64,000 nucleotides of DNA, from the NCBI GenBank assembly GCA_964600115.1, contig CAZRIL010000001.1:42810-106809 (forward strand), given 5' to 3'. Source of the stretch: an uncultured Chthoniobacter sp. Lineage in GTDB: Bacteria; Verrucomicrobiota; Verrucomicrobiia; Chthoniobacterales; Terrimicrobiaceae. The notes under the pieces were generated by a model. That model was not told the DNA's origin, ran no database searches, and saw only the letters and a list, made by a program, of their open reading frames with translations. The position numbers and the translations under genes were made by a program. This document shows, piece after piece, positions 7,188-53,950 of the stretch. Position 1 is the stretch's first letter. Each line of letters starts with the position of its first letter.

Positions 7188-7199
7188 GTGAATATTCAC
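7188..7199. promoter_or_regulatory. Palindromic site GTGAATATTCAC
   Basis: Perfect 12-bp palindrome of the recurrent family G[GT]GAA[CT][GA]TTC[CA]C, in the 390-bp divergent region between the M20 peptidase and GH42 genes. Confidence 0.4.
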
Positions 7200-7403
7200 G
7201 GTCAGCCGTTCTCCTCCATAGTTAGAACCATGAAAACCATTCATTTCCACTGGGACTGATACTTTGAAGTTTACTTCGGCTTTGTTTTTTTTGTGACATT
7301 ATATTATGAGATGCCTCGGAGCCTGCCCCGGCGCATTTTCCGGCAGATCCCGGTCTGCTTCTGAGGGTTCGGATGTGTGCTCCTTGTGATCCATGATTGA
7401 ATT

Positions 7404-9455
7404 GTGAATCTCCACTATGAAAAATCCAACCGTCCCGTGATCATTCACGGTGGAGATTACAACCCCGACCAGTGGCTTGGGCAGCCGGAAGTCCTCGGCA
7501 AGGATTTCGATTTGATGAAAGCCGCTCACATCAACACGGTGACGGTTGGCGTGTTTGCGTGGGCAGCCTTGGAACCCGAGGAGGGGCGGTATGAATTTGC
7601 TTGGCTGGATGATGTCTTCGACCGCGCGGAGAGGCAAAATTTCCGGGTCATCCTGGCGACGCCCAGCGGAGGGAAGCCGAACTGGCTGGCGCTGAAATAT
7701 CCGGAGGTGCGGCGGGTAGGGACGGATGGCCTGCGTGAGCCCCAGCAGAGGCGGCACAATCACTGCCTGACGTCGCCCGTTTACCGGGGCAAGGTGCGGG
7801 AAATCAATTCCCGCCTTGCTCAGCGCTATGGAAAACGACCCTCGCTTTCACTGTGGCATGTCTCGAATGAATACCTCGGCTACTGCTACTGCGACCTCTG
7901 CATGGCGGCATTTCAAGGGTGGCTGCGGGAGCGCTACCGGACACTCGACAAGCTCAACGACGCCTACTGGTCACGGTTCTGGAGCCATACGTTCACCGGG
8001 TGGGACCAGATCCGCACGATTGACGACAGCGTCAATGCGCTGAGCCTCGACTGGAAGCGGTTCATGACGGAACAATGCGCCGGCTTTCTCCGGGCCGAGG
8101 CCGCCCCGCTCCGCGAGCACTCCCCGGGGATCCCGATCACGACGAATTTCCATCCGATCGACCACTACGATCTCATCCGCCTGGCGGAGGAGGTCGATGT
8201 GGTAAGCTGGGACAGCTATCCGGACTGGCACGCGAATCCGGACGGGGTGGACGAATCCGCCACCGCGCTTGAGACGGCTTTTCGATTGGACATGTGTCGC
8301 GGAATGAAAGCCGGGAAGCCCTTCCTCCTCATGGAATGCACGCCGAGCCAGATCAACTGGCGAGGGGTTTCTCCGCTCCGCCGTCCGGGCATGCTCCGCC
8401 TGAGCAGCCTGCAAGCTGTCGCGCATGGCTCTGATGCCGTCTGCTACTTTCAGATCCGCAAGGGCCGGGGCGGCTCGGAAAAATTCCACGGCGCGGTCAT
8501 CGACCACGCCGGGCAGGCCGGGACGAGGGTCTTCCGCGAGGTGGCGGCACTGGGGATAACACTGGAAAACCTGTCGGGAGTGATCGGGGCCCGGGTGCCC
8601 GCAAAGGTTGCTCTGGTTTTTGATTGGGAAAATTACTGGGCGCTCCGGGGGGCGGGCATGCCGCAAAATGCCCACAAGGAATATATCGAGACCTGCCTGT
8701 CCCATTACCGGCCGTTTTGGAAGCGCGGGATCGCGGTGGATATCATCCACGCCCGCGCCGGTCTTTCCGGATACAATCTGGTCCTGCTCCCGATGCTTTA
8801 TCTTGTGCCGGATGGAATGCCCGAACGGCTCTCCGCCTTTGTAAAAAATGGGGGGGCGGTCGTCGGAACCTACCAAACCGGTTATGTCAACGAGACAGAT
8901 CTCTGCTTTCAAGGAGGCGCACCGGGTCCGCTGAGCCGGGTTCTGGGAATCCGCGTCGAGGAATTCGATGCGCTCCCGGATTCTGCGAGGCGTCCCGTCA
9001 TCCCCCGGCCCGCTGCGGGCCACGGACTCAGCGGCGCTTACGAGGCCAGGCATTTCCTGGATATCGTCCATTGCGAAGGCGCGGAGACGCTTGCGGAATA
9101 TGGAGCGGATTTCTACGCAGGTGCTCCTGCCCTGACAGTCAATTCATTCGGTGACGGACGCGCGTATTACATTTCCTCCCGGAATGACGACCGGTTTCAG
9201 GACGATTTTATCGAGCACCTCTCGAGGGATCTCCAACTGCCTCGCGCAGTCTCCGACACCCTCCCGCCGGGAGTGACCGCGCATCTGCGCAAGAATGGCA
9301 GCGAACAATTTCTTTTTATTCTGAACTTCACCCATCACGACACGTCGGTTTCCCTTCCGGCCGGGTCGTGGTGCGATGCTGATACTGGCAAAGCAGCAGG
9401 CCCGGCTTCTCCTCTCGCCGCCCTTGGATCAAAGATTTTCCGGTCAACACTATGA
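7404..9455 (+). CDS. Beta-galactosidase, glycoside hydrolase family 42
   Basis: GGDYNPDQW near the N-terminus, acid/base region WHVSNEY and nucleophile region LLMECTPSQINW are the GH42 hallmarks. Start is either GTG 7404 or in-frame GTG 7437. Confidence 0.9.
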   Translation: MNLHYEKSNRPVIIHGGDYNPDQWLGQPEVLGKDFDLMKAAHINTVTVGVFAWAALEPEEGRYEFAWLDDVFDRAERQNFRVILATPSGGKPNWLALKYPEVRRVGTDGLREPQQRRHNHCLTSPVYRGKVREINSRLAQRYGKRPSLSLWHVSNEYLGYCYCDLCMAAFQGWLRERYRTLDKLNDAYWSRFWSHTFTGWDQIRTIDDSVNALSLDWKRFMTEQCAGFLRAEAAPLREHSPGIPITTNFHPIDHYDLIRLAEEVDVVSWDSYPDWHANPDGVDESATALETAFRLDMCRGMKAGKPFLLMECTPSQINWRGVSPLRRPGMLRLSSLQAVAHGSDAVCYFQIRKGRGGSEKFHGAVIDHAGQAGTRVFREVAALGITLENLSGVIGARVPAKVALVFDWENYWALRGAGMPQNAHKEYIETCLSHYRPFWKRGIAVDIIHARAGLSGYNLVLLPMLYLVPDGMPERLSAFVKNGGAVVGTYQTGYVNETDLCFQGGAPGPLSRVLGIRVEEFDALPDSARRPVIPRPAAGHGLSGAYEARHFLDIVHCEGAETLAEYGADFYAGAPALTVNSFGDGRAYYISSRNDDRFQDDFIEHLSRDLQLPRAVSDTLPPGVTAHLRKNGSEQFLFILNFTHHDTSVSLPAGSWCDADTGKAAGPASPLAALGSKIFRSTL

Positions 9456-10462
9456 CACCATTCATCCACCAAACAGATATCTTCCACCCCCATGGCGATC
9501 CGGATGACCACTGGGATCTTGCGACTGTGTATGCACTCGCCGCGCAGGAGCTGGTCGAATTGCGAGGCATCATGTTCGACTATCCGCCAGACCACAGGGC
9601 GGGGGATCCTGCGATGCTCGCCGCCGCGCAGCTCGGATGCCTGACCGGAATCACCGGGATTCCTTCCGCTGTCGGATCGATGTTCCCGATGCGCAATCGC
9701 GTGGACACGCAGGGTGACCGGGGCAAGGCAGCCGTTGCGGCCGCAGAGTGGCTGTGCCGCACACTCGAAGCCAGCGACGCCACCGTTGTTATCAATATTG
9801 TGGGCTCATGTACGGACGTGGCGATCGCGGGGCTGATGCGCCCGGATCTTTTTAAGGCGAAATGCAAGGCCATCTACCTGAATGCCGGTGCCGCGAACCC
9901 GGGAAAGGATGGCGAGCTGGAATACAACGTGCGGCTGAATCCGAGTTCCTACTCCGCGATCTTCGACCTTCCTTGTCCGGTATATTGGTGTCCGTGCTGG
10001 CACCAGACCGAGGTCCGCGAGGTCGGCATCAACGGGACGTGGTATTCGTTCGTGCAGGGGGAAATCCTCCACCGCATCGGCGGGCCGCTCTGCAACTATT
10101 TCCTCTACATGCTGAGCCGGTCGGCCGACCCGAAATACCTCCGCTATCTCACTGCGCCCGTTGAAGCAGCATTGCTTGAAGATTTTGGCGCGAAGGCCCG
10201 CAGCATGTGGAGCACGGCCGCGATCCTGCATGCCGCAGACATGGGGGTCGATGCGAAGCGAGGACTGCTCCCGGTCGGCCTCGTCACCGATCCGGTCTTC
10301 GAGTTTTTTCCGATAACAATCGCCTGCGCGGACGACGGGCAGACGACATGGCATCCGTCCGCCGGAGATTCCGGCCGCCACATCTTCCAAATCCGCCATC
10401 CCGAGTTGTATGCCGCATCGATGACGGCCGCGCTCGGCACACTGCTGAAAACAATAATGTGA
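9452..10462 (+). CDS. Hypothetical protein, nucleoside-hydrolase-like N-terminal motif
   Basis: ATGA start/stop overlap with the GH42 gene. The N-terminal GDPDDHWDL resembles the Asp cluster of inosine-uridine nucleoside hydrolase folds. Function not established. Confidence 0.5.
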   Translation: MTPFIHQTDIFHPHGDPDDHWDLATVYALAAQELVELRGIMFDYPPDHRAGDPAMLAAAQLGCLTGITGIPSAVGSMFPMRNRVDTQGDRGKAAVAAAEWLCRTLEASDATVVINIVGSCTDVAIAGLMRPDLFKAKCKAIYLNAGAANPGKDGELEYNVRLNPSSYSAIFDLPCPVYWCPCWHQTEVREVGINGTWYSFVQGEILHRIGGPLCNYFLYMLSRSADPKYLRYLTAPVEAALLEDFGAKARSMWSTAAILHAADMGVDAKRGLLPVGLVTDPVFEFFPITIACADDGQTTWHPSAGDSGRHIFQIRHPELYAASMTAALGTLLKTIM

Positions 10463-11430
10463 TCATTTGCCATTGTTCCAACGCCCGTGCTGGCAGTCGT
10501 CAAATTTCGAATCACTCCGGTTTCCTGAAAGGAGTCGGTTCGATTTGTTTCTCATTCCTCCTTTTCGGAGCCGCAGCCACGGCCGTGGATCCGGCGGGCT
10601 CCGGACTGCCGGATTTCAACCCCGGGGAATTCGGGACGCTTGCCTGCGGGGAGATCGTCAATAGCTTCAAGCTGGCCACCGACATCCCATACCGTGGCGC
10701 TAACGATGCCAAAGCTGACGCGTATGTCGCCGAGCGATGCAAGCTCGACATCTTTTATCCTACCCACCGCAAAAACGTGCCCGTGCTGATCTATTTTCAT
10801 GGCGGCGGGATGAGCGGGGGATCCAAGGACTCGAAGATGGAGCTCTACAAGCATCTCGGATGCGTGATCGTGACCCCGAACTACCGGCTCTCGCCACGCG
10901 CGAAATGCCCCTCCTACATCGAAGATGCCGCCGCCGCTACCGCATGGGTCAAAAAAAATATTTCAGACTACAACGGCGATCCCGGCAGGATTTTTGTCAG
11001 CGGGCATTCGGCCGGCGCCTATCTGGCGACCTGCCTGGCGACGATGCCGCAATTTCTTGAAAAGCAGGGGTGCCGGCCCGGAGATTTTGCAGCCTACATT
11101 TCCATCAGCGGGGAGATGGTCACCCACCGGGCGATCTGCGCCGAGCGCGGGCTGCCGAAAGGCCAGATCGTCATCGACGAATACGCCCCCATCAGTCACG
11201 TCTCGAAAGATGTACCGCCGCTGATCTTGCTGACGGGAGGCACAGGGCTCGATATCGATAGCCGCCCTGCGGATAACAAGCTCATGTGCGATGCGATGCG
11301 CGTCGCGGGCAACACGAACTGCCGGCACTACGAAGTTCCCGGCACCGATCATGGCAGCATCATGGATGCAGCCTACGCCTACCTGCTGCAGGTCATCCGT
11401 GAAAACCTTAAAAAACCGCCGACTCCGTGA
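10459..11430 (+). CDS. Alpha/beta hydrolase (carbohydrate esterase/lipase-like), secreted
   Basis: Oxyanion motif IYFHGGGMSGG and nucleophile elbow GHSAGAY. GTG 10459 gives a GTGA overlap with the upstream stop and a hydrophobic signal segment SICFSFLLFGAAATA. The longer track ORF from 10207 overlaps the upstream gene. Confidence 0.8.
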   Translation: MIICHCSNARAGSRQISNHSGFLKGVGSICFSFLLFGAAATAVDPAGSGLPDFNPGEFGTLACGEIVNSFKLATDIPYRGANDAKADAYVAERCKLDIFYPTHRKNVPVLIYFHGGGMSGGSKDSKMELYKHLGCVIVTPNYRLSPRAKCPSYIEDAAAATAWVKKNISDYNGDPGRIFVSGHSAGAYLATCLATMPQFLEKQGCRPGDFAAYISISGEMVTHRAICAERGLPKGQIVIDEYAPISHVSKDVPPLILLTGGTGLDIDSRPADNKLMCDAMRVAGNTNCRHYEVPGTDHGSIMDAAYAYLLQVIRENLKKPPTP

Positions 11431-11431
11431 C

Positions 11432-14883: not shown

Positions 14884-14895
14884 GGGAACGTTCCC
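14884..14895. promoter_or_regulatory. Palindromic site GGGAACGTTCCC
   Basis: Perfect palindrome in the divergent region between the esterase (-) and CE4-like A (+) genes. Its centre is about 52 nt upstream of ATG 14942. Confidence 0.5.
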
Positions 14896-16380: not shown

Positions 16381-17412
16381 TTACTTTTTCGACGGGATTG
16401 CGTGGCGGCGGGCGATGCTGTCTCGAAGGATGAGCTCCGCAGGAATGGAGCGGACCTCCGTATTCCGGTCGAAATTCTCCCGCCGGAGCTCCAGCAGCTC
16501 GCAGATGGCTTGTGCCGTCTGGACACGGCTGGTCCGCACCGTAGTCAGGCTGGCGCGGACACCCTCCGCGATGTCGTCCACCCCGGCGACCGAAAGATCT
16601 TTTGGAATGGATCGCCCGGCAACACGCGCGGCGTGCATCACCCCACAGGCGATAATATCATCGGCGCAGAAAACGGCCGTGGGAGGATCGGGAAGCGCCG
16701 CCCATTTACGGAACGCGTGGATGCCGCCCTCCGCTCCATCTTCTCCGAAGTAGATCAGGGACTCGTCGGGCTTTTCGCCCTCCGCGGCCGCGTGCTTGGC
16801 GTAGGCCCGGAAGCGGCTTGTCTTCCGGCACCCCGGAAAGTTCTGGGCGGCATAGCCGATGCGGGTATGCCCGAGCGCACGGTAGTGCGTCATCACCCTG
16901 CTCACGCTCTCGAAAAGCTCGTAGCGGACAAAGTCAAATCCGGGGATGGGATTTCCGTGAAGAAAAACCATGGCGATGCCGCGGGACTTGAGCTGATCGA
17001 AGATCGTCGGGTTGTCGTGGTAGTGGGATTGGTCGAGGATCAGCCCGTCCACCTCGCCCGCCGTCCATTGCAGGATGAGCTCGGCTTCGCGGTTCTTGTC
17101 GTTGTTGGAAATCCCGATGAGGAGCGTGATGCCGATTTTTTCCGCCTCGTGATTGAGCGCCTCGACGAGCTCTGAGTAGTAGGGGTTGCGAAGATGCGGG
17201 ACAAGGATCGCCCAGCGGCTCGTCCGACCGAGCTTCATCATGCGGGCACCATTGTGCGGGAGATACCCGATCTCGCGGGCTGCCCGGAGGATCTTCTCCT
17301 TCGTCGCCGGCTTGATCCCCGCCTGGTTGTTGAAAGCGCGGGAAATCGTCCCGCGCGAAATTCCCGTGTAATCCACGAGGTCAAATATCGTCGGGCGCGC
17401 GGACTTTTTCAT
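16381..17412 (-). CDS. LacI family transcriptional regulator
   Basis: N-terminal HTH TIFDLVDYTGISRGTISRAFNNQAGIKPATKEKILRAAREIGYLPH followed by a periplasmic-binding-protein-like sugar-binding core. Start at MKKSARP (17412). Confidence 0.9.
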   Translation of the reverse strand: MKKSARPTIFDLVDYTGISRGTISRAFNNQAGIKPATKEKILRAAREIGYLPHNGARMMKLGRTSRWAILVPHLRNPYYSELVEALNHEAEKIGITLLIGISNNDKNREAELILQWTAGEVDGLILDQSHYHDNPTIFDQLKSRGIAMVFLHGNPIPGFDFVRYELFESVSRVMTHYRALGHTRIGYAAQNFPGCRKTSRFRAYAKHAAAEGEKPDESLIYFGEDGAEGGIHAFRKWAALPDPPTAVFCADDIIACGVMHAARVAGRSIPKDLSVAGVDDIAEGVRASLTTVRTSRVQTAQAICELLELRRENFDRNTEVRSIPAELILRDSIARRHAIPSKK

Positions 17413-17521
17413 TCCTGCCCCCTTAAACCACATCGCCTCCTCACCATCAAGCAAGTTGCGCGGAAAGCGGTTCCCGCCCGCCAGCGTCCCATGCCCGACA
17501 AAAGTTTGTGTTGATAATTTC

Positions 17522-17533
17522 GTGAACGTTCCC
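17522..17533. promoter_or_regulatory. Palindromic site GTGAACGTTCCC
   Basis: Lies in the divergent region between LacI (-) and CE4-like B (+), about 46 nt upstream of ATG 17574. Confidence 0.5.
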
Positions 17534-17573
17534 TTTTATGTTCTGGAACCTGAGTCGAACCCCACAAAATCGA

Positions 17574-29594: not shown

Positions 29595-29725
29595 AAATAC
29601 CCGCCCTTTCCGGCGCTGGCTAGAAGCACGTCACGTGCGTCCGCCCGCGCAATGGCGATCGCCTCGCCGATGCCTCTTGTGGATCCGGTGACGGGAGCGG
29701 ATTTTTGATTGGGTGAAAAACTCAT
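29591..29725 (-). pseudogene. 44-codon relic of a short-chain dehydrogenase/reductase N-terminus
   Basis: MSFSPNQKSAPVTGSTRGIGEAIAIA... carries the SDR TGxxxGIG Rossmann motif, then terminates after 44 codons. ATGA overlaps at both ends, with the iclR-family stop and with the GH28 start. Confidence 0.55.
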
Positions 29726-30480: not shown

Positions 30481-30951
30481 GCCGTATGAGAATAATTATC
30501 ATAACAGATAAAAATAGTGTCAATAGAGATTTGACGGAGAGAACGAAAATTGGGAGATGTTTGTGGGGTGCCATGAAATTTGCTGATCTTAGCGTCCGAG
30601 CGGCGGCGATCCCGGTCACTTACCGGCTCCGCCGAAATGCAGGGGTGCATCCCGGCGGCATTCTGCGGACAATCCCCGAACTGATTTCCACCCGTGGGAT
30701 TGTTGGTCCCGGCGAGGTTGGCGGTGGAGACCGGCGCGCGGCTTTGACAAAACGGAAACCGCGGATTGTCGGGAGGGATCGGACACGTCTGGAATCCATC
30801 AAGCCCGCTTCCGTGGACCTCGACTTGGAAAAATCGACAACTACGAGCGCAAAGATGACAAGCGCGGCGGCTGCTGCACGCGATTTCACGAGGATGCCAA
30901 ACATACTGACCGGTATCCGATCGCGGGAGGAATTTAACCAGACATCGATCA

Positions 30952-36586: not shown

Positions 36587-36601
36587 GGGAGCAAAGTGAA
36601 T

Positions 36602-36613
36602 GGGAACATTCCC
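36602..36613. promoter_or_regulatory. Palindromic site GGGAACATTCCC (preceded by an extra GTGAAT half-site)
   Basis: About 21 nt upstream of the minus-strand start at 36586 of the giant GH-A gene. Confidence 0.5.
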
Positions 36614-36730
36614 GCTTTTTGGGCTCCCGTCAAGCACGGGCGAACAGGACACTTCTGCATGAAGCAGGAGACATGGTGGACAGCATTGCCGCCTTTCAGC
36701 GATCCTCCAGGGGAGGGATCTTCTGAATCC

Positions 36731-36742
36731 GTGAATGTTCCC
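36731..36742. promoter_or_regulatory. Palindromic site GTGAATGTTCCC
   Basis: About 53 nt upstream of ATG 36790 of GH94-like copy 2. It is the second site in the same divergent region. Confidence 0.5.
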
Positions 36743-36789
36743 GCCGCTATTGACGAACGGGTGTTCATCGGATGAAATGGCCGGGACGC

Positions 36790-40585: not shown

Positions 40586-40597
40586 GTGAACATTCAC
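40586..40597. promoter_or_regulatory. Palindromic site GTGAACATTCAC
   Basis: Lies in the divergent region between the BNR-4-like (-) and MFS (+) genes. Confidence 0.45.
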
Positions 40598-42388: not shown

Positions 42389-45300
42389 ATGCTATCTACA
42401 AGAGGCTTCTGGTCTGCGACCTGCGGAGGAATCCGGATGGTTCACAGGCGGCGGGGGATGGCGCTTGTCATTGTCCTGGCATCCTTGGTTTTGCTGTCGA
42501 TCCTGGTTGTCAGCATCCTGACGTCGGCCCGGCAGGAAGTGACTTCCTCCAATTCCTACGGGGCTGGCAGCGATGCCAAACTGCTGGCCGACCTTCCCTT
42601 AAATCTCGTTACCGCACAGATTGCGAAGGCGACCTCGAACCCCGACCAGGCGTGGATTTCCCAACCCGGGCTCCTGCGCACATTCTCGCCGGATGGCCAG
42701 CAGAAGGCCTTCAAGCTGTATTCCTCTTACAAAATGGAGGAGTCCGGAACCTATGATCCTGGCAGTGCGGCGGCACTCTCGGCCGACGTTCCCGACAAGT
42801 GGTTTGAAAAGCCGGACGAGTTCGTGGATTTGAACCGGCCCATCCAGTTCGGAAACCGCAAGATCTACCCGATCGCGGACCCGAATGCTTACGATGCGTC
42901 CAAGCCCTCTGACTCGCTCGTGCAGGGGTTTTCCTACGATGTGCCGGCTGCCATCAACCCGCCTGCAGGGAACGCCACAACCAACCTGCTTCCGATGCCG
43001 GTGCGGTGGATTTACGTGACGGCGGACGGCGAGTTCGTCGGTGTGGACGACGCCAGACGCCGGGAGGCGGTTGCCCGGGTGGCCTTCTGGACCGACGACG
43101 AAAGTTGCAAGGTCAACCTCAACACGGCTTGCGGCGGAGTTTTCTACGACACGCCCTGCACGAACACCTTGGAAGACCACATGCTGGGCCGCACCCAGCC
43201 GATCGCGCAGGAGTACCAGCGGTGGCCCGGGCATCCGGCCACGACCAGCCTCGCACCCGTGCTCAAGCCCTTGCGCGATATCGCCGATCCGGTCGCGCGC
43301 TCCCGGATTGCGGCCGGGCTCACACCGAGAATCGCCTGGGGGGGATCTTCGGGAGGAACAAAATACGCCTGGCTCACGCGCGAGCTTGGCTCGACGGATA
43401 TGGACCGCCTTTACGCCACGCCGGACGAGCTCTCATTCGGCAAAGGCCTCGATGCCGCCGGCCTGCGGGTCTCGAACACCGTGAACGGCATTGATCTGGA
43501 GAGCGGCGGCCAGAAGCTCGATGAGCTCCGCTTTTTCCTGACCACACAAAGCCGTTCGCCCGAACTGACCTTGTTCAATCGGCCGCGCATCAGCCTCTGG
43601 CCGTTCAACGAGGAGATGGTGCAGACCACTGTGGACGGACGCCTCACTCCCGAAGACCGGCTCATCCGCTTCGCGTCGGAACTTGGCGGCGTGAAGGCCG
43701 ACGGAACGCTCGATTACACGAAGCGCAAGCGGTTCTACTTCCAGCGCAAGAGCGCGTGGGATCCGGCGGCAGACTGGCGGGATATCCCGTCCAACCGCGC
43801 GATTTTCCGCTACCTCCAGGACATGACCGCGCGCTCGCTGCCCTCGGCAAAATCCGACCGCGCCGGAACTGAGACCCTCCGGTCCAAATACGGTCAGGCC
43901 AACCGGGACTCCATTCTCGCCTGCATGTGGGACTATTTGAGAAGCGGGGTGAACACGGTCAACCAGGCCTATGTGCCGGTCGGGTTCCTGCCCTATTCAT
44001 TTCCTCAGGGATACGACACCACAATCTCGGGGTTCAATGACGTGGCGCCCCTCGTCATTTCCGACCTCGGGACAAAAGGCATGGGCCGCCATCCCGTGCT
44101 CACCGAGGTGATTTTCCAGTTTGTCAACATGGGGGATGATTTTGAAAAGGATGCCTCCGGCACGGCGATCGACCAGCGCGATAACAACAACCCCGCCAAC
44201 CTCACGCCCGATGGGATGCCGGACTATGTCATCCGCAGGGTCCGCATGGTTGTCCTGTTGAATTTTCAGATGCCTGTAACCAGCCTGTATGGCAGCCTGC
44301 CGCGGCTTCAGGTGAAGATAACCGGCTCCACACCGTTCAACTTTGTGACGGATAATGCCTCGCTCTCCCCGGTTCCCAGCCCTCTCATGAACCCCGGACT
44401 ATCCCAGCCGATCAATGTCCGGAATGTGGCCGGCGGTATCCCGTCATGGACGACCACGCTGGCGCCTGCAGGCATCGGGTTTCCCGCCCCGGCGTCGGAC
44501 GGAGCTTTTCGCAACACCAACTACGTCGGCTCGTTTTTTAACGGCAGGAGCTCCTACGATACCCGGGGGGGAATTTTGGGGCCCGGCTTCGGAATGTATG
44601 CCGTGATCGAGAACAAGATGAAATCGAGCAACAGTTCCACCGACCCGGAAAACGTCCACCGCCTCAAGGTTCTTTCCAACCGGGCCTCAACGCTGGAGGC
44701 CGCCGACCTGGCTTGGCGGAATTCATCCGCCTCATCGTGGGCGGCGCGCGAGGACGTCTATTACCCCTTCGTCAGCGACGTGATCGAATTTCGCCTTCCG
44801 CAGAAGGGCCGGACATTCACTCCTCCCAGCCTTCTGCCAAATCCGCTTCCGTCTCCCAATCTGGCAGACCCGGTGAACTCCTATACCACGGGCATGGTCG
44901 GCGGCACGATCACCCCCGCCGGGAAGGATTACTTCGAAGCGTTCCTCTCCGGAGGCACTCTCGATGTGGCGGTTTATCCGGGCCTGCAGGATTCGGCCAC
45001 AGCCCTCTCTCCCATCGGTTCGAATTGGCAGGCTCAAACCGGCACGAATTATTTGATGAAGACCACGATCAACGTGGGCAGTGCCGTCATCCCGCTCCCG
45101 CGGCCGGGGCCTGACCTGGTCAATGCTTCGAGGGGAACCAGCATCCCGAACCCTCCGAGCCCACCCACATTTTTGGCGATGGGCAACTATTACGAGCGGA
45201 CGAAGCTGGTCTACGTCGACAACCTGCTCCAAGTCCCATCCAAGATCACAACGAGCGCGACCCCGGTCGTCACGACGCAGATGGACGTCTTCCGCTCCTA

Positions 45301-46783
45301 CCTGCTGCAGGGCGGGGCTCCTGTGAATGGCGACTTGCGCCTCGCGGCGCTGCGCTCCGAGATTCCCTCGTCCTGGTGGCAGCCGCATCCGCTTTTTTCT
45401 ACACGAGGGGTTTTTCACGGAACCAGCTTCCTGCCTGGCCAGCAGCAGCAAGCCACTCCGATTGATGCAGCGAGCGGTGAAAAGGCGGATCTCTGCACGG
45501 TTGACGGCGACACCGCCACGACGAACCCGTTCACGGCCCGCAGCAAAGGGGGCAGGCTGCACAGCGGGATCTCGATCTACAATACCGGAGCTTATCGCGC
45601 GACCTCGCCGGCGGCCAAATCCTCCTCCCGGAACGGATCGGCGGCAGTCGGGGATTTTACTCTGGGCTTCGGGAATATCTCTGCGGGCGCGGTGGTGGCC
45701 GGTCCGGATCTGGGAGGAGTTTCCTGGGAACAAAACGTGGCAAGCTCTTTGACGACCACCGGCCCATATTTTTCCGGAGAGTTCAGCCGGGCCGGATCGA
45801 ACGATACCGCCACTGTTACCGGCGGAGCGTCGGGCAAAAATCTGACGGGCATCATGTATTCCCCCTTCAAGCAGGTGCCCTCGCCGGTCATCTTCGGCAG
45901 CATCCCCTCACGCGCGGGGGACCCGGCACCAGGATCATGGGAGACGCTGCTTTTCTGCCCGAACCCGGCGGGCGGAAAGAACACCCATCGCGGCTGGACT
46001 CAGGCTCCCCGCGACCATTACCTGCTCGACCTGTTCTACATGCCGGTCGTCGAGCCCTACGCGATCACGGAAAACTTCGCGACGGCCGGCAAGGTGAACC
46101 TCAACTACCAGATTGCGCCGTTCACCTACATCAAGCGCAAGACCGCACTCTACGCGCTCATGGATAGCATGACGGCAAACTCCACATTCAGCCTTGCCCC
46201 CAACTACACAGGGAACGCTGCAGGGTCGGCGATTGTTGCGGTGCCCGATACCGAAGCTTCCAACACCGCCTATCGCACGGTTTCCAACGGCGTGAAATTG
46301 TCCCAGGCCGGGGCGGCCTCCTACCGGAAATTCGTGGATGCCGAAAATACGCTGAAAGCGTTCGACACGCGGTTTGACACGCAGAACGACCCGTTTGTAT
46401 CACCTTCGGAAATCTGCGAGATGTTCTTGAGTCCGGTCGGAGCGGCTGCCGCGGAGGCCTTCTGGGCCGACAAGACGCTGACCGGAGACGATAAACGGGA
46501 GATGCCTTACAATCACCTTTACCCCCGCGTCACCACCCGGTCCAACACGTTCCGGGTCCATTTCTGGGTGCAGGCCCTGAACTCCCGCCTCGGTCGCGAA
46601 AATCCGATCGTCACCGGCGAATACCGGGGCTCCACAATTATTGAAAGATACCTCGACCCCAATATCACGGAATATGGCACCGGTTTCGGCGATGGGAATT
46701 CGTTCGATGTGAATGCGGCCTTTCCTCCCCTGAACGACCGCTACCGTTTCCGCCAGCTCGAGCACCAACAATTTGCTCCATGA
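42389..46783 (+). CDS. Verru_Chthon cassette protein A-like giant protein (GspK/PilX-like N-terminal segment)
   Basis: 1464-aa ORF. The N-terminus RRGMALVIVLASLVLLSILVVSILTSARQE is a pseudopilin-like hydrophobic helix lacking Glu5. The rest has no motif I recognise. Size and context match my recollection of TIGR02600. Alternative starts at 42437 and 42458. Confidence 0.7.
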   Translation: MLSTRGFWSATCGGIRMVHRRRGMALVIVLASLVLLSILVVSILTSARQEVTSSNSYGAGSDAKLLADLPLNLVTAQIAKATSNPDQAWISQPGLLRTFSPDGQQKAFKLYSSYKMEESGTYDPGSAAALSADVPDKWFEKPDEFVDLNRPIQFGNRKIYPIADPNAYDASKPSDSLVQGFSYDVPAAINPPAGNATTNLLPMPVRWIYVTADGEFVGVDDARRREAVARVAFWTDDESCKVNLNTACGGVFYDTPCTNTLEDHMLGRTQPIAQEYQRWPGHPATTSLAPVLKPLRDIADPVARSRIAAGLTPRIAWGGSSGGTKYAWLTRELGSTDMDRLYATPDELSFGKGLDAAGLRVSNTVNGIDLESGGQKLDELRFFLTTQSRSPELTLFNRPRISLWPFNEEMVQTTVDGRLTPEDRLIRFASELGGVKADGTLDYTKRKRFYFQRKSAWDPAADWRDIPSNRAIFRYLQDMTARSLPSAKSDRAGTETLRSKYGQANRDSILACMWDYLRSGVNTVNQAYVPVGFLPYSFPQGYDTTISGFNDVAPLVISDLGTKGMGRHPVLTEVIFQFVNMGDDFEKDASGTAIDQRDNNNPANLTPDGMPDYVIRRVRMVVLLNFQMPVTSLYGSLPRLQVKITGSTPFNFVTDNASLSPVPSPLMNPGLSQPINVRNVAGGIPSWTTTLAPAGIGFPAPASDGAFRNTNYVGSFFNGRSSYDTRGGILGPGFGMYAVIENKMKSSNSSTDPENVHRLKVLSNRASTLEAADLAWRNSSASSWAAREDVYYPFVSDVIEFRLPQKGRTFTPPSLLPNPLPSPNLADPVNSYTTGMVGGTITPAGKDYFEAFLSGGTLDVAVYPGLQDSATALSPIGSNWQAQTGTNYLMKTTINVGSAVIPLPRPGPDLVNASRGTSIPNPPSPPTFLAMGNYYERTKLVYVDNLLQVPSKITTSATPVVTTQMDVFRSYLLQGGAPVNGDLRLAALRSEIPSSWWQPHPLFSTRGVFHGTSFLPGQQQQATPIDAASGEKADLCTVDGDTATTNPFTARSKGGRLHSGISIYNTGAYRATSPAAKSSSRNGSAAVGDFTLGFGNISAGAVVAGPDLGGVSWEQNVASSLTTTGPYFSGEFSRAGSNDTATVTGGASGKNLTGIMYSPFKQVPSPVIFGSIPSRAGDPAPGSWETLLFCPNPAGGKNTHRGWTQAPRDHYLLDLFYMPVVEPYAITENFATAGKVNLNYQIAPFTYIKRKTALYALMDSMTANSTFSLAPNYTGNAAGSAIVAVPDTEASNTAYRTVSNGVKLSQAGAASYRKFVDAENTLKAFDTRFDTQNDPFVSPSEICEMFLSPVGAAAAEAFWADKTLTGDDKREMPYNHLYPRVTTRSNTFRVHFWVQALNSRLGRENPIVTGEYRGSTIIERYLDPNITEYGTGFGDGNSFDVNAAFPPLNDRYRFRQLEHQQFAP

Positions 46784-46790: not shown

Positions 46791-46862
46791 TTCATGCGAC
46801 AGGAAAACCAGCGCGATAGCGCTTCGCAGTTTGGGGAAGTCGAATGCTTGGCCCAGGGAGGG
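46791..46862 (+). repeat. 72-nt intergenic element, copy 1
   Basis: ttcatgcgacaggaaaaccagcgcgatagcgcttcgcagtttggggaagtcgaatgcttggcccagggaggg. It starts 7 nt after the stop of gene A, is 61/72 identical to copy 2 by hand alignment, and is followed by the hairpin GGCAAC-N16-GTTGCC (46861..46888). Confidence 0.65.
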
Positions 46863-46961
46863 CAACCGGAGCGAAGCGAAGCGTTGCCGCATCCCCTCAC
46901 GGATGGCGAAACCACCCCACCCGAAAATCTTGCGTCTTTCTGCATATCTGAGACTGTTTAT

Positions 46962-46973
46962 GGGAACGTTCCC
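46962..46973. promoter_or_regulatory. Palindromic site GGGAACGTTCCC inside the pilin-like cassette
   Basis: Perfect palindrome about 22 nt upstream of ATG 46990 (gene B), in the 206-bp spacer after gene A. Confidence 0.5.
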
Positions 46974-46989
46974 GTGCAGTCCTCCCGAT

Positions 46990-47454
46990 ATGAATTCCCC
47001 ACGCCTCCATTTTGGATCCCGCCGGGCGGCTTCATGGGCCGGGGCGGGTGGCTTCACCCTCGTGGAAGTGCTGCTGGCGCTCGGGATCGTGTCGTTTGCC
47101 TTCATGGCCCTGTGCGGCATGCTGCCTGTGGGGCTGCAGACCTACCGCGACGCGATGGATGCGACCTGCCGGGCGAATATTGTCCGGGTGATCAGCGCCG
47201 AGCTTACGCAGGCACCGTATGCCGGGATTGATGCCTGGATGGGACAGGAACGGTTTTTTAGCGACCAGGGATTGGAGGTGGCGTCAGCGGACGAGGCCCG
47301 GTTTCGAGTGAAATATGAGAACGTCCTTCCGGGCACCTCACTGTTTGGTGCGACAAACTCCTCACTGAAGCCTGTCACGATAAATATATCCTCGATACAG
47401 GACGGCAAATCCATGTCGCGCGTCACCGTGTTCATCGCAGACAATGGCTCCTGA
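46990..47454 (+). CDS. Verru_Chthon cassette protein B-like, prepilin-type N-terminal cleavage/methylation domain
   Basis: MNSPRLHFGSRRAASWAGAGG|FTLVEVLLALGIVSFAFMAL is a class III signal-peptide-like sequence with Glu at +5. 154 aa. Confidence 0.75.
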   Translation: MNSPRLHFGSRRAASWAGAGGFTLVEVLLALGIVSFAFMALCGMLPVGLQTYRDAMDATCRANIVRVISAELTQAPYAGIDAWMGQERFFSDQGLEVASADEARFRVKYENVLPGTSLFGATNSSLKPVTINISSIQDGKSMSRVTVFIADNGS

Positions 47455-47575
47455 TCTTTCTGGCGGCCCGGGCATGCCGCGCGACGCCGGTCTGCGAGGC
47501 AGCGCAAATCATGGAGCGATGCCGCCCGCGGCGTCCGCCCTGCCGCGGCAATGGCGCCGAAGGCGATGCCGGTCC

Positions 47576-48708
47576 ATGCGTCCCGCGTTTACTATTTTGG
47601 AGCTGCTCGTTGCCATGGCCGTGATGGCGCTGATCATGGTCGTGATCGGCGGGATGTTCTCTGCCGTTTCAAAATCCTGGAAGTCGGGTTCCGGGCGCGC
47701 GGCGTCGTTCGCGGCAGCGCGGGCGGCCTTTGAGTCGATGAGCCGAAACCTTTCGCAGGCGACGCTGGCCACCTACCTGAGCTACGCCGACAGCTCGGGA
47801 AACCCGGTGCCGCTCATCAACCCCTCGTTCAAGCCCGCCAGCGGAAGCGTCTCCCGAACGAGCGTTCCCACGCAATACCTCCGGATGTCGGAGCTGCATT
47901 TCATCACGGACAGGGCGGCCAAATTGTTCGCGGACGCAGGAATCTCCGGCCTCGTCACGACCGGTCAGGCTGTTTTTTTTCAGGCGCCGACGAGCTTTGT
48001 TCAGGCACAGGACAACCGCCCGAAGGCCAGCCTCCTGAACGTTCTGGGCTATTACATCGAATTCGGAACCGACGACGCATTCAAGCCTGGCGCGGTGAAC
48101 TCTCTGGTGGCATCGCGTCAGCGCTACCGGCTCATGGAGGTCGCCCAGCCGGCCGAGCGGAACGGCATTTACGAAAGCACCTGCGAGCTGGATGCGCAGG
48201 GGCTTGCAAAATATGCCTCCGACCTCAGGTGGCTTGCCAGGTTGATTCTTGTCACTCCGACGGAATCCACGCCGCTGGAAAAGCAGCCGCTGGCGGAAAA
48301 CGTCATCACGATGGCGTTTCTGCCGCGTCTCTCGCCAATCCAATCGGCCGATCCCGCCGGGCTGACCAAGGATTTTTCCTATGACAGCCGCGCGTGGGAG
48401 GTCACCGGATCGAGTGGCGACCCGCGCCTCCGGAACCAGCTTCCTCCGCTCATCGAGCTGGTCATCGTCGCGATCGATGAACCCTCAGCGCAAAAGCTCT
48501 CAGCGCTTTATGGCGGGGCTGGCGGATCGTCGCCGCCCTTTGCGGATCCCGCCGTTCGTGCCAAGGTGGATCTGGACGCCCTTTTCAAGGATCCCACAAG
48601 GCTGGAAGCGGACATCAAGACTCTCGAAGACGGAATGAACATGCTGCAGGTGAACTACCGGGTCTTCCGGACAACTGTCGCGATGCATGGCGCAAAATGG
48701 ACCGAACG

Positions 48709-48712
<4 letters not shown>
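47576..48712 (+). CDS. Verru_Chthon cassette protein C-like, prepilin-type N-terminal domain
   Basis: MRPAFTILELLVAMAVMALIMVVIGG. Start uncertain, with in-frame ATGs at 47444 and 47519. About 378 aa. Confidence 0.7.
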
Positions 48713-49380
<668 letters not shown>

Positions 49381-49387
49381 GAGGCGT

Positions 49388-49981: not shown

Positions 49982-50021
49982 AGGAGGAATCTGTCACTCT
50001 GGTTCGGGCGGGAGCAATCAG

Positions 50022-50798
50022 TCAAAAGTTGAACATACCTGAGGATACGTAATTGGTCGAATTGACGATTTGCGTCTCGTTGTGGCCATCAAAATACACA
50101 ATGAAACGCTTTGCCCTGTAGCTGCGTGGATTCGATGAAGAGTATTTTCTGCCATCCGACCAGGTGTTCCATGCGTTGGTGCCGGAGCTGTCCATCCGGC
50201 GGGAGAACATGAGCGCGGTTTTTGAGAGGTTGGAGATCTGGCTGAGGCGGTTGAACCCTGCATGCGTGACCCCGTTCGTATCGACGTAGGTGCTGTGCGC
50301 GTTGTAATTGAAATACCAGCCGGCCGTCCGGTTTCGAGGCGGCCCGCCCGGCCAGGCCAACGGATCCGGATAGTAGAGGTTCTCTTCTCCGCCACCTTGC
50401 GTTCTCGAGCCGTTGAGTTCCGCGAAAGCGTCCCACCAGACAGGGTTGGCAAAGCGCTTGTTCCCTGTTTCCTCCAGATCAAGATAGGGAGCGATCGCGG
50501 TTTGGATCGACCACATGGTGGCCCCGTCGGACGTATTGGTATTTGTCTGGCCGACCAATGGAACGGTGCCGGTATCTGCCATGTGTAGCAGATAAGCGGC
50601 CCCAATGTTCCGCATCCGGCTTACGGTTTTTGTCCCAAGCGCCTGATTCCGGACCCCCGCCAGGGCCGGGACGGTTATCACCACAAGAATCGCGATGATC
50701 GCGATCACGACCAGTAGCTCAACGAGGGTAAAGGCCCCGAGCCGCCTGGCGCGTCGCGCTCGCGCTATACGGATCAACAATACTGAGGAGTTCGTCAT
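50022..50798 (-). CDS. Prepilin-type N-terminal cleavage/methylation domain protein (orphan pilin-like, DUF1559/HX9DG-like C-terminus)
   Basis: MTNSSVLLIRIARARRARRLGAFTLVELLVVIAIIAILVVI. The C-terminal ...RFIVYFDGHNE resembles the DG(H/S) end motif of pilin-like solute-capture proteins. Start at 50798 rather than the track start 50927. Confidence 0.8.
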   Translation of the reverse strand: MTNSSVLLIRIARARRARRLGAFTLVELLVVIAIIAILVVITVPALAGVRNQALGTKTVSRMRNIGAAYLLHMADTGTVPLVGQTNTNTSDGATMWSIQTAIAPYLDLEETGNKRFANPVWWDAFAELNGSRTQGGGEENLYYPDPLAWPGGPPRNRTAGWYFNYNAHSTYVDTNGVTHAGFNRLSQISNLSKTALMFSRRMDSSGTNAWNTWSDGRKYSSSNPRSYRAKRFIVYFDGHNETQIVNSTNYVSSGMFNF

Positions 50799-50816
50799 CT
50801 GCTGTCCATGGGAAGC

Positions 50817-50828
50817 GGGAATGTTCCC
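50817..50828. promoter_or_regulatory. Palindromic site GGGAATGTTCCC
   Basis: About 24 nt upstream of the minus-strand start at 50798 of the orphan pilin-like gene. Confidence 0.5.
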
Positions 50829-51010
50829 ATTCAACAGGGGCGGTGTCAATCCAAAACCCTTGCCCCCGCACATCCGGGCTGCCGGGGAACTCCAGGAGGT
50901 TCTGCATTTCTGTCTGCCAAACCGCAATCTTCGATCTTAAATCCGGAACCCTTGCCGCCTAAATATCCTTCACTCAATCTTCAAGCGCCGTCACACTGAT
51001 CGAAAAATAC

Positions 51011-51022
51011 GTGAATGTTCAC
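51011..51022. promoter_or_regulatory. Palindromic site GTGAATGTTCAC
   Basis: About 38 nt upstream of ATG 51055 (URO-D family gene). It is the second site in the divergent region 50799..51054. Confidence 0.5.
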
Positions 51023-51054
51023 GTTATTCTTGAGGTATCCGCAACGATTCGTGT

Positions 51055-52089
51055 ATGGTCATGAGCCAGCCTGTTGTCTTTCGACCGAATCCGCCAGCGT
51101 GCAAAACGACGATGAAAACACCAAAGGAAAATGTGCGGAGCGTGCTTTCAGGGGAAATGCCTGAGCGGACGCCCTATCGCATTAGCGTCGGCCCCGATAT
51201 CGCGCAGCGCCTGCGGGCAACCTACGGCGAGGACTACCACGCACGGCTTCTCGACGACGACATGCGCCACCGTTCGTTCTGGGTGCGCTGGCCTCTCGTC
51301 AAATACGTGAAGCACGGGGAGGTGACATGGATCGACGGCGTGCTCATCAACGACTGGAGCGACCTTGACAGCTATCCATTTCCCACCGGCCGCGAGGCCG
51401 AATGGTTTGTCGATCTCGACAGCCACATTGCGCTCCACGGCGAACGCTACGGTGTGGCGGTGATGTTCCCTTCGATCTTCCACGCCTGCATGGACACCTT
51501 CCGCGGGTCGGAGAATTTTCTGATGGATGTCTATGACGAGCCGGACCGCGTGCGGCGCATGCAGGAATCCATCATCGGAACGCTCGAAAACATGGTGGAT
51601 GAGATCTGCCGGCGCGAGATCGACCTCCTCATCGTCGGCGACGATGTTTCGACCGAGAACGCGCTCATGGTGTCGCCCGGGTTTCTGAATGAGCACGTCT
51701 TCAAATACAACCGCCGCCTCGTGGAGATCGCGCACAGGCGCGGGAAGAAAGTTTTTTTTCACACGGACGGGGTCCTGCCGGATGAGCTTGTGGAGATGGT
51801 AATCGACTGCGGCTTCGACGGGATGCACCCGCTCCAGTTCTCGTGCAACGACCTCCAAGCCTTCGCGGCAAAATACCGCAACCGCCTTCTCTTCTACGGC
51901 GGGCTCGACAACACCCAGGGCATCCCGAACAAAGGCATTCCCTGGATCGAGAGCCATGTGCGCCAGCTCCACGAGTGGTTCGGGGAGCGCATCATCCTCT
52001 CGTCGAGCGACCTCATGGGCGGAACCCCGGATGAAAACATTCTCGCCCTCCCGCGCATCATCAAAGAAATCTGCCGGTTCGGTTCGTAA
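51055..52089 (+). CDS. Uroporphyrinogen decarboxylase (URO-D) family protein
   Basis: ...FRGSENFLMDVYDEPDRV... and FFHTDGVLPDELVEMVIDCGFDGMHPLQ are typical of URO-D/MtaA-like TIM barrels. Start 51055, 51061 or 51112. Confidence 0.7.
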   Translation: MVMSQPVVFRPNPPACKTTMKTPKENVRSVLSGEMPERTPYRISVGPDIAQRLRATYGEDYHARLLDDDMRHRSFWVRWPLVKYVKHGEVTWIDGVLINDWSDLDSYPFPTGREAEWFVDLDSHIALHGERYGVAVMFPSIFHACMDTFRGSENFLMDVYDEPDRVRRMQESIIGTLENMVDEICRREIDLLIVGDDVSTENALMVSPGFLNEHVFKYNRRLVEIAHRRGKKVFFHTDGVLPDELVEMVIDCGFDGMHPLQFSCNDLQAFAAKYRNRLLFYGGLDNTQGIPNKGIPWIESHVRQLHEWFGERIILSSSDLMGGTPDENILALPRIIKEICRFGS

Positions 52090-52283
52090 ATCCGGTCGTC
52101 ACTGCAGAAACGGCATTCAGGAATGGGAACCACCAACGGCCGCTCAAGTCCACGGACGCAAGAGAGAATCGGGTTTGCAAACCGGCTTCCACCCACCTGG
52201 GAAGAGTTGCAACCGCTCTCCGTTAGTGCCTTTCAATGCATTTTAGTGGTTCCCCATCGTTTTCTGGGGAATCATTTTTCACC

Positions 52284-53492: not shown

Positions 53493-53494
53493 AT

Positions 53495-53566
53495 TTCGTG
53501 CGTCAGAAAATCCAACGCGATACCGCTTCGGAGTTTGAGGCAGTCGAATGTTTGGCCCAGGGACGG
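53495..53566 (+). repeat. 72-nt intergenic element, copy 2
   Basis: ttcgtgcgtcagaaaatccaacgcgataccgcttcggagtttgaggcagtcgaatgtttggcccagggacgg. It starts 2 nt after the stop of the alginate-lyase-like gene, in the same orientation as copy 1. Confidence 0.65.
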
Positions 53567-53569
53567 TGC

Positions 53570-53596
53570 CCCGGGCGGCGAGGACAGCCGCCCGGG
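53570..53596 (+). other. GC-rich stem-loop (10-bp perfect stem, 7-nt loop)
   Basis: CCCGGGCGGC-gaggaca-GCCGCCCGGG lies immediately 3' of repeat copy 2. No U-run follows, so it is not a canonical intrinsic terminator. Confidence 0.5.
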
Positions 53597-53938
53597 AGAT
53601 CATTCGCAAGTTGACCCGCAGGGGGAGAAGGGCGGGAGCGAACGACCGAACTGATACCGCAGCGAAACGAGTCGTTGTCGCACCTCCGAAGAGTCCCCGG
53701 CGGGGTTCATTCTTCTCCACCACAAACCAGTTGCCCGGCAAGTCCCATCACTGCCGCAAAATGGACTCCGCTTCGTGAACATGCCCGAATATACCCAATT
53801 GGCTGAAAGACAGTGAAATAGCACGGTTTAACCCGATTTTATCAACAAATTCCGAACTGCAGCAGCGCCCCTGACACATTCCGAGGTGGATTACGATTGT
53901 GTGGCCTTCAGATTTCAGTTGACTTTGTTCCGCAGATC

Positions 53939-53950
53939 GTGAAGATTCAC
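53939..53950. promoter_or_regulatory. Near-palindromic site GTGAAGATTCAC (one mismatch to the family pattern)
   Basis: About 32 nt upstream of ATG 53976 (PEP-CTERM protein). A second degenerate copy, GTGAACATGCCC, lies at 53775..53786. Confidence 0.4.

Follow-up and report, generated by a model that had tools for sequence, protein, structure and literature searches.

A recurrent 14-bp palindrome in a verrucomicrobial glycan-utilisation cluster is probably the operator of a LacI-family repressor

Introduction

Repressors of the LacI family bind even palindromes, typically of 16–22 nt, in which approximately seven base pairs are contacted per half-site. In the family survey of Ravcheev et al. 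2014 (PMC4052901), a central CG was present for 1173 of 1303 regulators, autoregulation was seen in 72%, and most sites lay 30–140 bp upstream of starts; the word Verrucomicrobia has 0 occurrences in that survey. The closest described operators are those of CebR and CelR, LacI-family cellobiose repressors of Actinobacteria, which bind the 14-bp sequence TGGGAGCGCTCCCA in electrophoretic mobility-shift assays; cellobiose releases CebR from it (PMC4358012). For Acidothermus a variant of this box is predicted, TGGGA(A/T)CG(A/T)TCCCA (TGGGAACGTTCCCA), the core of which is exactly GGGAACGTTCCC (PMC3377646). Operators of the IclR family are also built from inverted boxes and follow the patterns GKTYCRYW3-4RYGRAMC and TGRAACAN1-2TGTTYCA (PMC8222616). 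CebR and CelR boxes number 10–30 sites per genome and are scattered over the promoters of glycoside-hydrolase, transporter and regulator genes, all under one LacI-family repressor. Here we analyse a 64-kb stretch of DNA (the window) from a soil or freshwater Verrucomicrobium, in which the 12-bp palindrome GKGAAYRTTCMC recurs upstream of genes for glycan degradation and for pilin-like proteins, and in which one copy of the palindrome adjoins a gene for a LacI-family regulator. To our knowledge, very little work has been done on how free-living Verrucomicrobia control transcription, and we found no paper that describes LacI operators, promoter architecture or the Verru_Chthon cassette for this group.

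Recurrence and placement of the palindrome

The window contains nine exact matches to GKGAAYRTTCMC, starting at positions 7188, 14884, 17522, 36602, 36731, 40586, 46962, 50817 and 51011. Only 0.06 matches are expected from dinucleotide-preserving shuffles, and none of 100 shuffles reached nine. The original prediction had listed the same nine matches, with an estimate of approximately 0.1 chance hits. When one mismatch is allowed the count rises to 12, against 1.9 expected.

We placed these matches on a curated gene map of the window, built from open reading frames, codon-position G+C content and Pfam. All nine exact sites are intergenic, as had been claimed, although intergenic DNA makes up only 4,026 nt (6.3%) of the window (p ~1.5e-11). 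Seven of the nine fall within six divergent intergenic regions, and of the seven divergent regions in the window only that between the IclR-family and GH10 genes is without a site. For most sites the distance from the end of the palindrome to the most plausible start codon is short (15, 16, 18, 25, 29, 32, 40 and 46/54 nt), in agreement with the earlier placement of site centres 21–53 nt upstream of starts. The sites at 40586, 53775 and 7188 are separated from their genes by longer gaps of 86–237 nt, where approximately 90–250 nt had been proposed. The flanks of the window (0–7 kb and 56–64 kb) carry housekeeping-type genes and zero sites, and the promoters of these genes lack the palindrome.

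The recurrence of the palindrome in the window is genuine. A chance or compositional artefact is ruled out by the shuffles together with the restriction to intergenic DNA. A dispersed repeat or mobile element is likewise ruled out, since no repeat family extends over the sites and their flanks are not common to the copies, whose similarity ends one base beyond the palindrome in either direction. No Rfam family was matched in the window.

The near matches are of differing quality. Those at 53775 and 53939 have a single mismatch each and stand as originally proposed, whereas the one at 7404 (GTGAATCTCCAC) has two mismatches, which is chance level, and lies on a possible GH42 start codon; it is not a credible site. 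A one-mismatch match that had been missed, GTGATCATTCAC at 7437–7448, falls within the GH42 gene, where it codes for part of the conserved N-terminus (V-I-I-H-G-G-D). In two of the related loci described below (L004 and L005) the corresponding codons match with two mismatches, and the match at 7437 is most likely a coding coincidence and not a site.

A symmetric element next to a LacI-family gene

A single matrix was built from 38 sites, in the window and in nine related loci, that depart from the pattern by no more than one mismatch. The matrix is symmetric, and its conserved positions, −1 to 13, make up an even palindrome of 14 bp, C-GKGAAY|RTTCMC-G, centred on a pyrimidine–purine (YR) step. 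This length agrees with the approximately seven base pairs that LacI-family proteins contact in each half-site. The 12-mer begins with G and ends with C in every site (2.0 bits each), and conservation extends to the C and G that flank it, while G and T are equally frequent at position 2. The central dinucleotide is TG in 13 sites, CG in 10, CA in 7 and TA in 2, so that 32 of the 38 have a YR centre. Half-sites are combined as TT in 14 sites, GG in 12 and GT in 12, and the two halves vary largely independently. In 12 of the 38 sites a GTG half faces a CCC half, such that no pairing is possible and the predicted folding energy is approximately zero. Independent half-sites and a non-pairing third of the sites thus fit recognition by a dimeric protein and not an RNA structure.

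The site at 17522 lies next to a gene encoding a LacI-family regulator of 343 amino acids (16381–17412, minus strand). The protein is a full-length member of the family, with matches to Pfam LacI, Peripla_BP_1 and Peripla_BP_3 and to LacI-family structures in the PDB over their full length. It also matches the NCBIfam RbsR, CytR and PurR models, in every case below the equivalog cut-off. Its closest PDB relatives are about equally distant (E 1e-30 to 1e-25), and 5ysz (E ~1e-28) is no nearer than CcpA or PurR. Orthologues form a group that extends from 99% down to approximately 42% identity, followed by a drop to 33%, and within this group the recognition helix (S-R-G-T-I-S-R) and the hinge (G-A-R-M-M-K-L) are almost invariant. 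A search of genome contigs with the protein returned two relatives, both metagenome-assembled genomes of Terrimicrobiaceae, a family placed in class Terrimicrobiia of Verrucomicrobiota; these are the closest named relatives, and the kinship with Opitutae supposed by the original prediction has to be given up.

We conclude that the 14-bp palindrome is probably the operator of the LacI-family repressor encoded at 16381–17412. The link between protein and motif rests on co-localisation and family typology. The palindrome is even and YR-centred, it adjoins a full-length LacI-family gene, and it travels with orthologues of that gene at 54–90% identity, which supports the earlier comparison with LacI/GalR-type operators.

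Conservation of the palindrome with LacI orthologues

We compared the window with 13 loci that carry orthologues of the LacI-family gene (54–90% identity; 292 kb, mostly non-syntenic), most of which were retrieved through that gene. The orthologue identities of the retrieved loci are 87, 82, 81, 79, 79, 79, 76, 64, 58, 58, 55 and 54%. These loci hold 29 exact sites, against no extra exact site in a control of 513 kb of unrelated metagenome DNA. At least one site is present in 12 of the 13 loci, with L094 having a centre-variant only and L004 being the exception. Five exact sites lie within the 21 kb of L010 and six in L095 (from the same organism as L057); at up to one mismatch, L011, L012, L005 and L007 each contain between two and five.

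The LacI gene is itself preceded by a site with zero to two mismatches, both in the window and in L001, L002, L005, L007, L010, L011, L012, L057/L095 and L094, in the last case as the centre-variant GTGAAGTTTCCC. In most loci these sites are 97–222 nt from the LacI start and, where a −35 box orients them, they point at the divergent gene.

Sites are kept upstream of six orthologous gene types, namely those for cassette protein B, GH94b, CE4-like B, the esterase, the PATR/PEP-CTERM protein and the prepilin-type protein, despite different gene order. This is the conservation at orthologous promoters for which the original prediction had asked, and the retention of sites upstream of pseudopilin and PEP-CTERM orthologues agrees with its idea of a regulon-wide link between glycan degradation and pilin-like genes. 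The cassette B gene has an upstream site in all six genomes examined (the relatives being L001, L007, L010, L013 and L057/L095), and the GH94b orthologues have one in L007, L001, L002 and L012. In L005, the promoter of the esterase orthologue has sites at 11298 and 11400, and the CE4-like B orthologue shows the same layout as in the window (TTGAAA, 5 nt, site, TTTCAT). The prepilin-type orthologue in L034, which corresponds to 50022–50798 of the window, has a site 14 nt upstream, and the PATR/PEP-CTERM orthologue in L010 is preceded by TTGACA, 14 nt, GTGAACATTCAC, 22 nt and ATG.

The distribution within L009 is more selective. This locus has three AraC-linked sugar divergons without the motif, and only its LacI-adjoining operon has it, which argues against a general motif of sugar-gene promoters.

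We also approached the question from the side of the motif, by scanning metagenome contigs for the pattern TTGACA-N13-C-GKGAAYRTTCMC and counting as real those contigs with at least two exact sites and homologues of window proteins. The scan gave 79 matches, of which approximately 75 are chance singletons (G+C content 0.33–0.72, without homologues of window proteins) and three are real contigs. A LacI orthologue is present on two of these three. The scan also supplied the 513-kb negative control.

Two paralogues of the regulator, looked at for covariation between regulator and motif, bear on the question neither way. P0061, a variant with an R-to-I change in the recognition helix, shares L013 with the orthologue P0022, and the sole site there is in the cassette B promoter, with none attributable to P0061. 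P0060 lies in a non-sugar context and has no site at its locus.

Promoter phasing and proposed mechanism

In 11 of the 38 oriented sites, the 12-mer is preceded, at a distance of exactly 14–15 nt, by a match of at least 5/6 to TTGACA, compared with a background of 1.3% in the same best-of-four test. No other −35 offset from 0 to 40 holds more than two sites. With the resulting 17–18 nt spacer, the −10 hexamer would coincide with palindrome positions 4–9, AAYRTT, which supplies the critical −10 bases, A at −11 and T at −7. The sequence arrangement expected of a sigma-70 promoter (TTGAC[AGT], 14–15 nt, GKG and AAYRTT) is present in 11 of the 38 sites, the −10 being placed by spacing only. A different arrangement is found at the CE4-like B promoter, where the operator instead fills the spacer between −35 and −10. 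The suggestion in the original prediction that the palindrome is an unusual promoter element therefore holds in part, in that the palindrome occupies the −10 position relative to TTGACA in approximately a third of the sites, while the remainder lack a phased box. AAYRTT reads as a −10 on both strands, and we considered a bidirectional promoter core; this was dropped, as none of the sites is flanked by good −35 boxes in both directions.

The leaders predicted from this arrangement are short, at approximately 10–28 nt. Those inspected (36587–36601, 46974–46989 and 53951–53975 in the window, 17141–17162 in L010 and ~2058–2074 in L013) have no GGAGG-like Shine–Dalgarno sequence between palindrome and start and are pyrimidine-rich, with CTCCC or CCTCC just before the ATG. 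The ATG of cassette B follows the site by 6 nt in both L010 (7377) and L057 (10914), which suggests that the cassette B mRNAs of these loci are nearly leaderless.

In the mechanism that we propose, a repressor dimer would bind the palindrome through its helix-turn-helix motifs, one half-site G[G/T]GAA[C/T] per monomer, and the hinge helices would contact the flexible central YR step. At class I promoters, in which the palindrome follows the phased −35 box, the operator would cover approximately −15 to −4, including the −10 hexamer, and at the CE4-like B promoter it would cover the spacer. In either position the bound repressor would exclude RNA polymerase. A sugar or oligosaccharide from the target glycan would bind the domain that resembles periplasmic binding proteins and release the repressor, leading to joint derepression of ~10 transcription units (~27 genes, 7.2–56 kb). 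The derepressed genes would include those for GH42, the esterases, the CE4-like, GH39-like, rhamnosidase-like and GH94-like proteins, BNR_4 and the MFS transporter, together with those for the alginate-lyase-like and MtaA-like proteins, the Verru_Chthon pseudopilin cassette and the PEP-CTERM protein. For the helix-turn-helix contacts, the position of the hinge at the YR step and the sugar-driven release, we infer by analogy with LacI, PurR and CcpA and with the family survey (PMC4052901).

A more ambitious reading of the phasing is that the palindrome is a dual-function module, with AAYRTT as the actual −10 and the same 14 bp as the operator. In this case the unit 'TTGACA, 14 nt, operator' would have spread to many operons and been retained among divergent Verrucomicrobia, and the pseudopilin cassette and PEP-CTERM genes would have been placed under the sugar signal of the glycan enzymes. 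We put this forward tentatively, as a possibility that falls somewhat short of an even chance. If it is true, the cassettes would be part of a polysaccharide capture or secretion apparatus, and many transcripts would have very short leaders without Shine–Dalgarno sequences, some of them nearly leaderless.

Evidence against the operator assignment and alternative explanations

Several observations weigh against assigning the palindrome to the 16381–17412 protein. L004 (21 kb) carries a LacI orthologue (10001–11035; 82% identity) with an identical recognition helix and contains no palindrome anywhere; the regions upstream of its esterase, GH42-operon and PATR orthologues are siteless, unlike their counterparts in the window. 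Approximately two-thirds of the pooled sites have no good −35 box at the 14–15 nt phase. The conserved core of 12–14 bp is shorter than the 16–22 nt of LacI-family operators, and its centre is a degenerate YR and not a strict CG. Autoregulation is uncertain, as the oriented sites in the LacI divergent regions face the neighbour gene. Finally, there is an element of circularity, in that the loci were mostly found via the LacI gene, and a regulator encoded elsewhere, with a regulon that takes in these clusters, keeps a low probability.

The circularity and the siteless L004 locus speak for the alternative that the palindrome is the operator of another dimeric regulator, with the LacI gene merely lying within the same clusters. 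This regulator could be the IclR-family protein (29722–30480), which with the LacI-family protein makes up the only two regulator genes of the window, or one encoded elsewhere. The IclR half-site box GRAAC, as in TGRAACA-N1-2-TGTTYCA, resembles the GGAAC/GTTCC of the palindrome (PMC8222616). However, IclR-family boxes are 3–4 bp apart and here the boxes abut, the protein's own divergent region, shared with GH10, is the sole siteless one among seven, and no orthologue is found in any related locus with sites. The original prediction had named this protein beside the LacI-family one as a candidate binder, a role for which the siteless region and the missing orthologues leave little room. As for other regulators, unannotated window proteins (346, 197, 207, 791 and 1464 amino acids) gave no match to DNA-binding domains, and no other regulator gene recurs in the related loci. 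The restriction of the motif in L009 to the LacI-adjoining operon and the LacI orthologues on two of the three contigs found through the motif also argue against a regulator other than the LacI-family protein. We therefore consider another dimeric regulator unlikely.

The phasing described above raises the further alternative that the palindrome is purely a promoter core, a palindromic −10 (AAYRTT with G-rich shoulders) read by RNA polymerase or an alternative sigma factor with no dedicated repressor. This would account for the fixed 14–15 nt distance from TTGACA in 11 of the 38 sites, for A at −11 and T at −7, and for start codons only 6–32 nt downstream. It does not account for the symmetric conservation of both halves, including the invariant outer G and C and the flanking C/G, which a directional reading by sigma does not explain, nor for the unphased majority of sites. 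Moreover, the palindromes of the CE4-like B promoters lie in the spacer with a separate −10 after them, and the housekeeping promoters in the window flanks do without the element. A promoter of the extracytoplasmic-function type, with GGAAC at −35, is a misfit because the start codons are too close. On this evidence a pure promoter core is very improbable.

That the copies are RNA or DNA hairpins (weak intrinsic terminators, attenuators or elements like repetitive extragenic palindromes (REP)) can be dismissed as barely credible: a scan flags those at 36601, 40585, 51009 and 53937 as a 5–6 bp stem with a T-run, and symmetric G/G or T/T at positions 2 and 11 is mildly over-represented (26 observed, 19 expected), but seven of the nine exact sites are in divergent regions, where no transcript ends, the 12 non-pairing sites have no fold and the symmetric ones reach only −3 to −8 kcal/mol, and there is neither an Rfam match nor the common flanks of REP or miniature inverted-repeat transposable elements.

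A LacI-family operator hence accounts best for the symmetry, the placement and the conservation of the palindrome.

Sites and genes of the cluster

By Pfam and NCBIfam annotation, a single large glycan-utilisation cluster extends from 7.2 to 56 kb. Its enzymes include GH42, two esterases (one of them glucuronoyl-esterase-like), two CE4-like proteins, a GH39-like and a rhamnosidase-like protein, two GH94-like proteins, GH28 and GH10. The cluster further encodes a giant CBM9 protein, a BNR_4 protein, an MFS transporter, an alginate-lyase-like protein, two URO-D/MtaA-like proteins and a PATR/PEP-CTERM protein, and it also holds prepilin-type genes with the NCBIfam 'Verru_Chthon cassette' proteins B, C and D. 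Cassette proteins B (46990–47454) and C (47444–48712) score above their NCBIfam cut-offs, 50022–50798 scores below the cut-off of the cassette D model, and 48697–49380 has the Pfam N_methyl motif. The 1464-amino-acid protein at 42389–46783 is probably cassette protein A. Although the order of the cassette genes differs among genomes, the site stays upstream of B.

Three sites of the window have the class I layout. The operon of the giant CBM9 protein has a putative promoter–operator at 36602–36633 on the minus strand, consisting of TTGACG (36628–36633), 14 nt, GGGAATGTTCCC (36602–36613), 15 nt and the ATG at 36586. That of the prepilin-type gene 50022–50798, also on the minus strand (50817–50849), consists of TTGACA (50844–50849), 15 nt, GGGAACATTCCC (50817–50828), 18 nt and the ATG at 50798. 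The third, on the plus strand (53919–53950), serves the PATR/PEP-CTERM gene and runs TTGACT (53919–53924), 14 nt, GTGAAGATTCAC (53939–53950, one mismatch), 25 nt and the ATG at 53976. The same gene has a weaker site 189 nt upstream, GTGAACATGCCC at 53775–53786, which has one mismatch and may be an auxiliary site. The CE4-like B promoter (17511–17539, plus strand) combines TTGATA (17511–17516), 5 nt, GTGAACGTTCCC (17522–17533) and TTTTAT (17534–17539); the ATG at 17575 is 40 nt downstream of the site, and the LacI gene begins at a distance of 109 nt on the opposite strand.

The remaining sites are placed as follows. GTGAATATTCAC (7188–7199) is 204–237 nt upstream of the start of the GH42 operon and has a weak −35-like TTGCAT 14 nt upstream (7168–7173). 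GGGAACGTTCCC (14884–14895) lies in a divergent region of 112 nt, 46 nt from the start of CE4-like A (14942, plus strand) and 54 nt from that of the esterase (14829, minus strand). GTGAATGTTCCC (36731–36742, plus strand) is 29 nt upstream of the GH94-like gene start at 36772. In the divergent region between the BNR_4 and MFS genes, GTGAACATTCAC (40586–40597) is 86 nt from the BNR_4 ATG (~40499, minus strand) and 155 nt from the MFS GTG (40753). A second copy of GGGAACGTTCCC (46962–46973, plus strand) is 16 nt upstream of the ATG at 46990 of Verru_Chthon cassette protein B and heads the pseudopilin-like operon B-C-D (46990–49380). Finally, GTGAATGTTCAC (51011–51022, plus strand), with a partial −35 box GTCACA 15 nt upstream, is 32 nt upstream of the operon of the URO-D/MtaA-like (51055) and alginate-lyase-like genes.

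Two groups of genes in the cluster deserve separate description. The two URO-D / MtaA-CmuA-like proteins (24915–25955 and 51055–52089), which have a methyltransferase fold, are both encoded in operons that carry the motif, and in L004 an orthologue adjoins the LacI gene. Methylated sugars are possible substrates of these two proteins. The GH28, IclR and GH10 genes form a sub-cluster (28281–32349) with a divergent region of 471 nt (30481–30951) that has neither the 12-mer nor a clear palindrome, and they are presumably a separate unit under the control of the IclR protein. The GH28 orthologue in L012 carries a one-mismatch site.

Two further intergenic elements were observed. One, of ~85–120 nt with 81–85% identity between copies, is present in the window at 46791–46875 and 53495–53580 and in L034 at 1507–1629. 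Its copies begin just past a stop codon, upstream of a motif-bearing promoter, and have no Rfam match; the element may encode an RNA or else a small peptide, (M/V)RQENQRDSASQFGEVECLAQG..., for which the copies show several synonymous differences. The other is a hairpin of ~20 bp, GGTGGACA-GGAA-TGTCCACC, followed by CTCCGG, in promoter-proximal gaps of L005 (8274, 11058, 14331 and 17888) and of L004 (18587 and 19730), the one LacI-orthologue locus without the 12-mer. In variant copies (GGTGCGACATTCTTGTCGCAC; within 14993–15185 of L004) both arms change together. This second element could be another operator, or else a hairpin that resembles REP elements or terminators.

Comparison with known systems

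The regulon offers an operator sequence, a candidate repressor and ~10 putatively co-regulated transcription units. With them comes an initial view, from sequence, of how promoters in this lineage are built, with TTGACA at −35, a spacer rich in A/T, and leaders that are short and rich in pyrimidines. The 'Verru_Chthon cassette' pseudopilin genes, which are conserved and uncharacterised, and the PEP-CTERM proteins also gain a functional lead, in that they would be tied to sugar-responsive glycan degradation.

The system is closest to CebR and CelR in its operator, an even palindrome of 14 bp in which half-sites of the GGGAxC type abut, and in the many scattered promoters that one repressor would serve. 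The LacI-family structure 5ysz, which we take to be Thermobifida CelR, has the recognition helix R-G-T-[VI]-S-R and, like the 16381–17412 protein, has R-G at both specificity positions. However, the present system belongs to another phylum and the protein is only a distant family member, not an orthologue. Its palindrome differs in having A in place of G at position −2, G or T at position 2, a YR centre in place of the fixed CG, and an outer C/G in place of T/A. The targets are not cellulases (Pfam annotation of the cluster returned neither a cellobiose ABC transporter nor a cellulase gene), and they include pseudopilin-like and PEP-CTERM genes. By analogy, the palindrome would work like a CebR box outside the CebR regulon.

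The lac operator shares the register, GTGAGC|GCTCAC (ideal symmetric form AATTGTGAGC|GCTCACAATT) compared with GTGAAC| here, both being even with a pyrimidine–purine centre. The arginine equivalent to LacI R22 is conserved (S-R-G-T-I-S-R), a hinge region is present, and repression by occupation of the core promoter, as in lac, is what we propose here. The specificity residues differ, with R-G in place of LacI Y17-Q18, and the hinge has Met in place of the Leu 'lever' of LacI and PurR. The 343-amino-acid protein lacks a C-terminal tetramerisation extension, so that a dimer without looping is expected, and it would serve approximately ten operators where LacI serves one operon.

IclR-family operators resemble the palindrome in the box GRAAC/GTTYC, and a gene of this family lies in the cluster. 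They differ from it in the gap of 3–4 bp between boxes that here abut; the IclR gene's own divergent region is siteless, and the gene is absent from the site-bearing related loci.

Among regulons of the type collected in RegPrecise (PMC4052901), the present one is typical in being a local sugar-catabolic regulon with a palindromic operator, a site upstream of its own regulator, most sites less than 140 bp from starts and multiple sites in divergent regions. It is atypical in that its ~10 operons and ~27 genes reach the 'global' threshold of that survey numerically, yet form one cluster, in its core of 12–14 bp as against 16–22 nt, and in an operator that is phase-locked to the −35 box with its centre predicted to double as the −10. 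In its proposed mechanism the design is conventional, a repressor on a promoter. It is mildly unusual in two respects, namely the operator centre that would double as the −10 at a fixed phase and the putative co-control of pseudopilin-cassette and PEP-CTERM genes with glycan enzymes.

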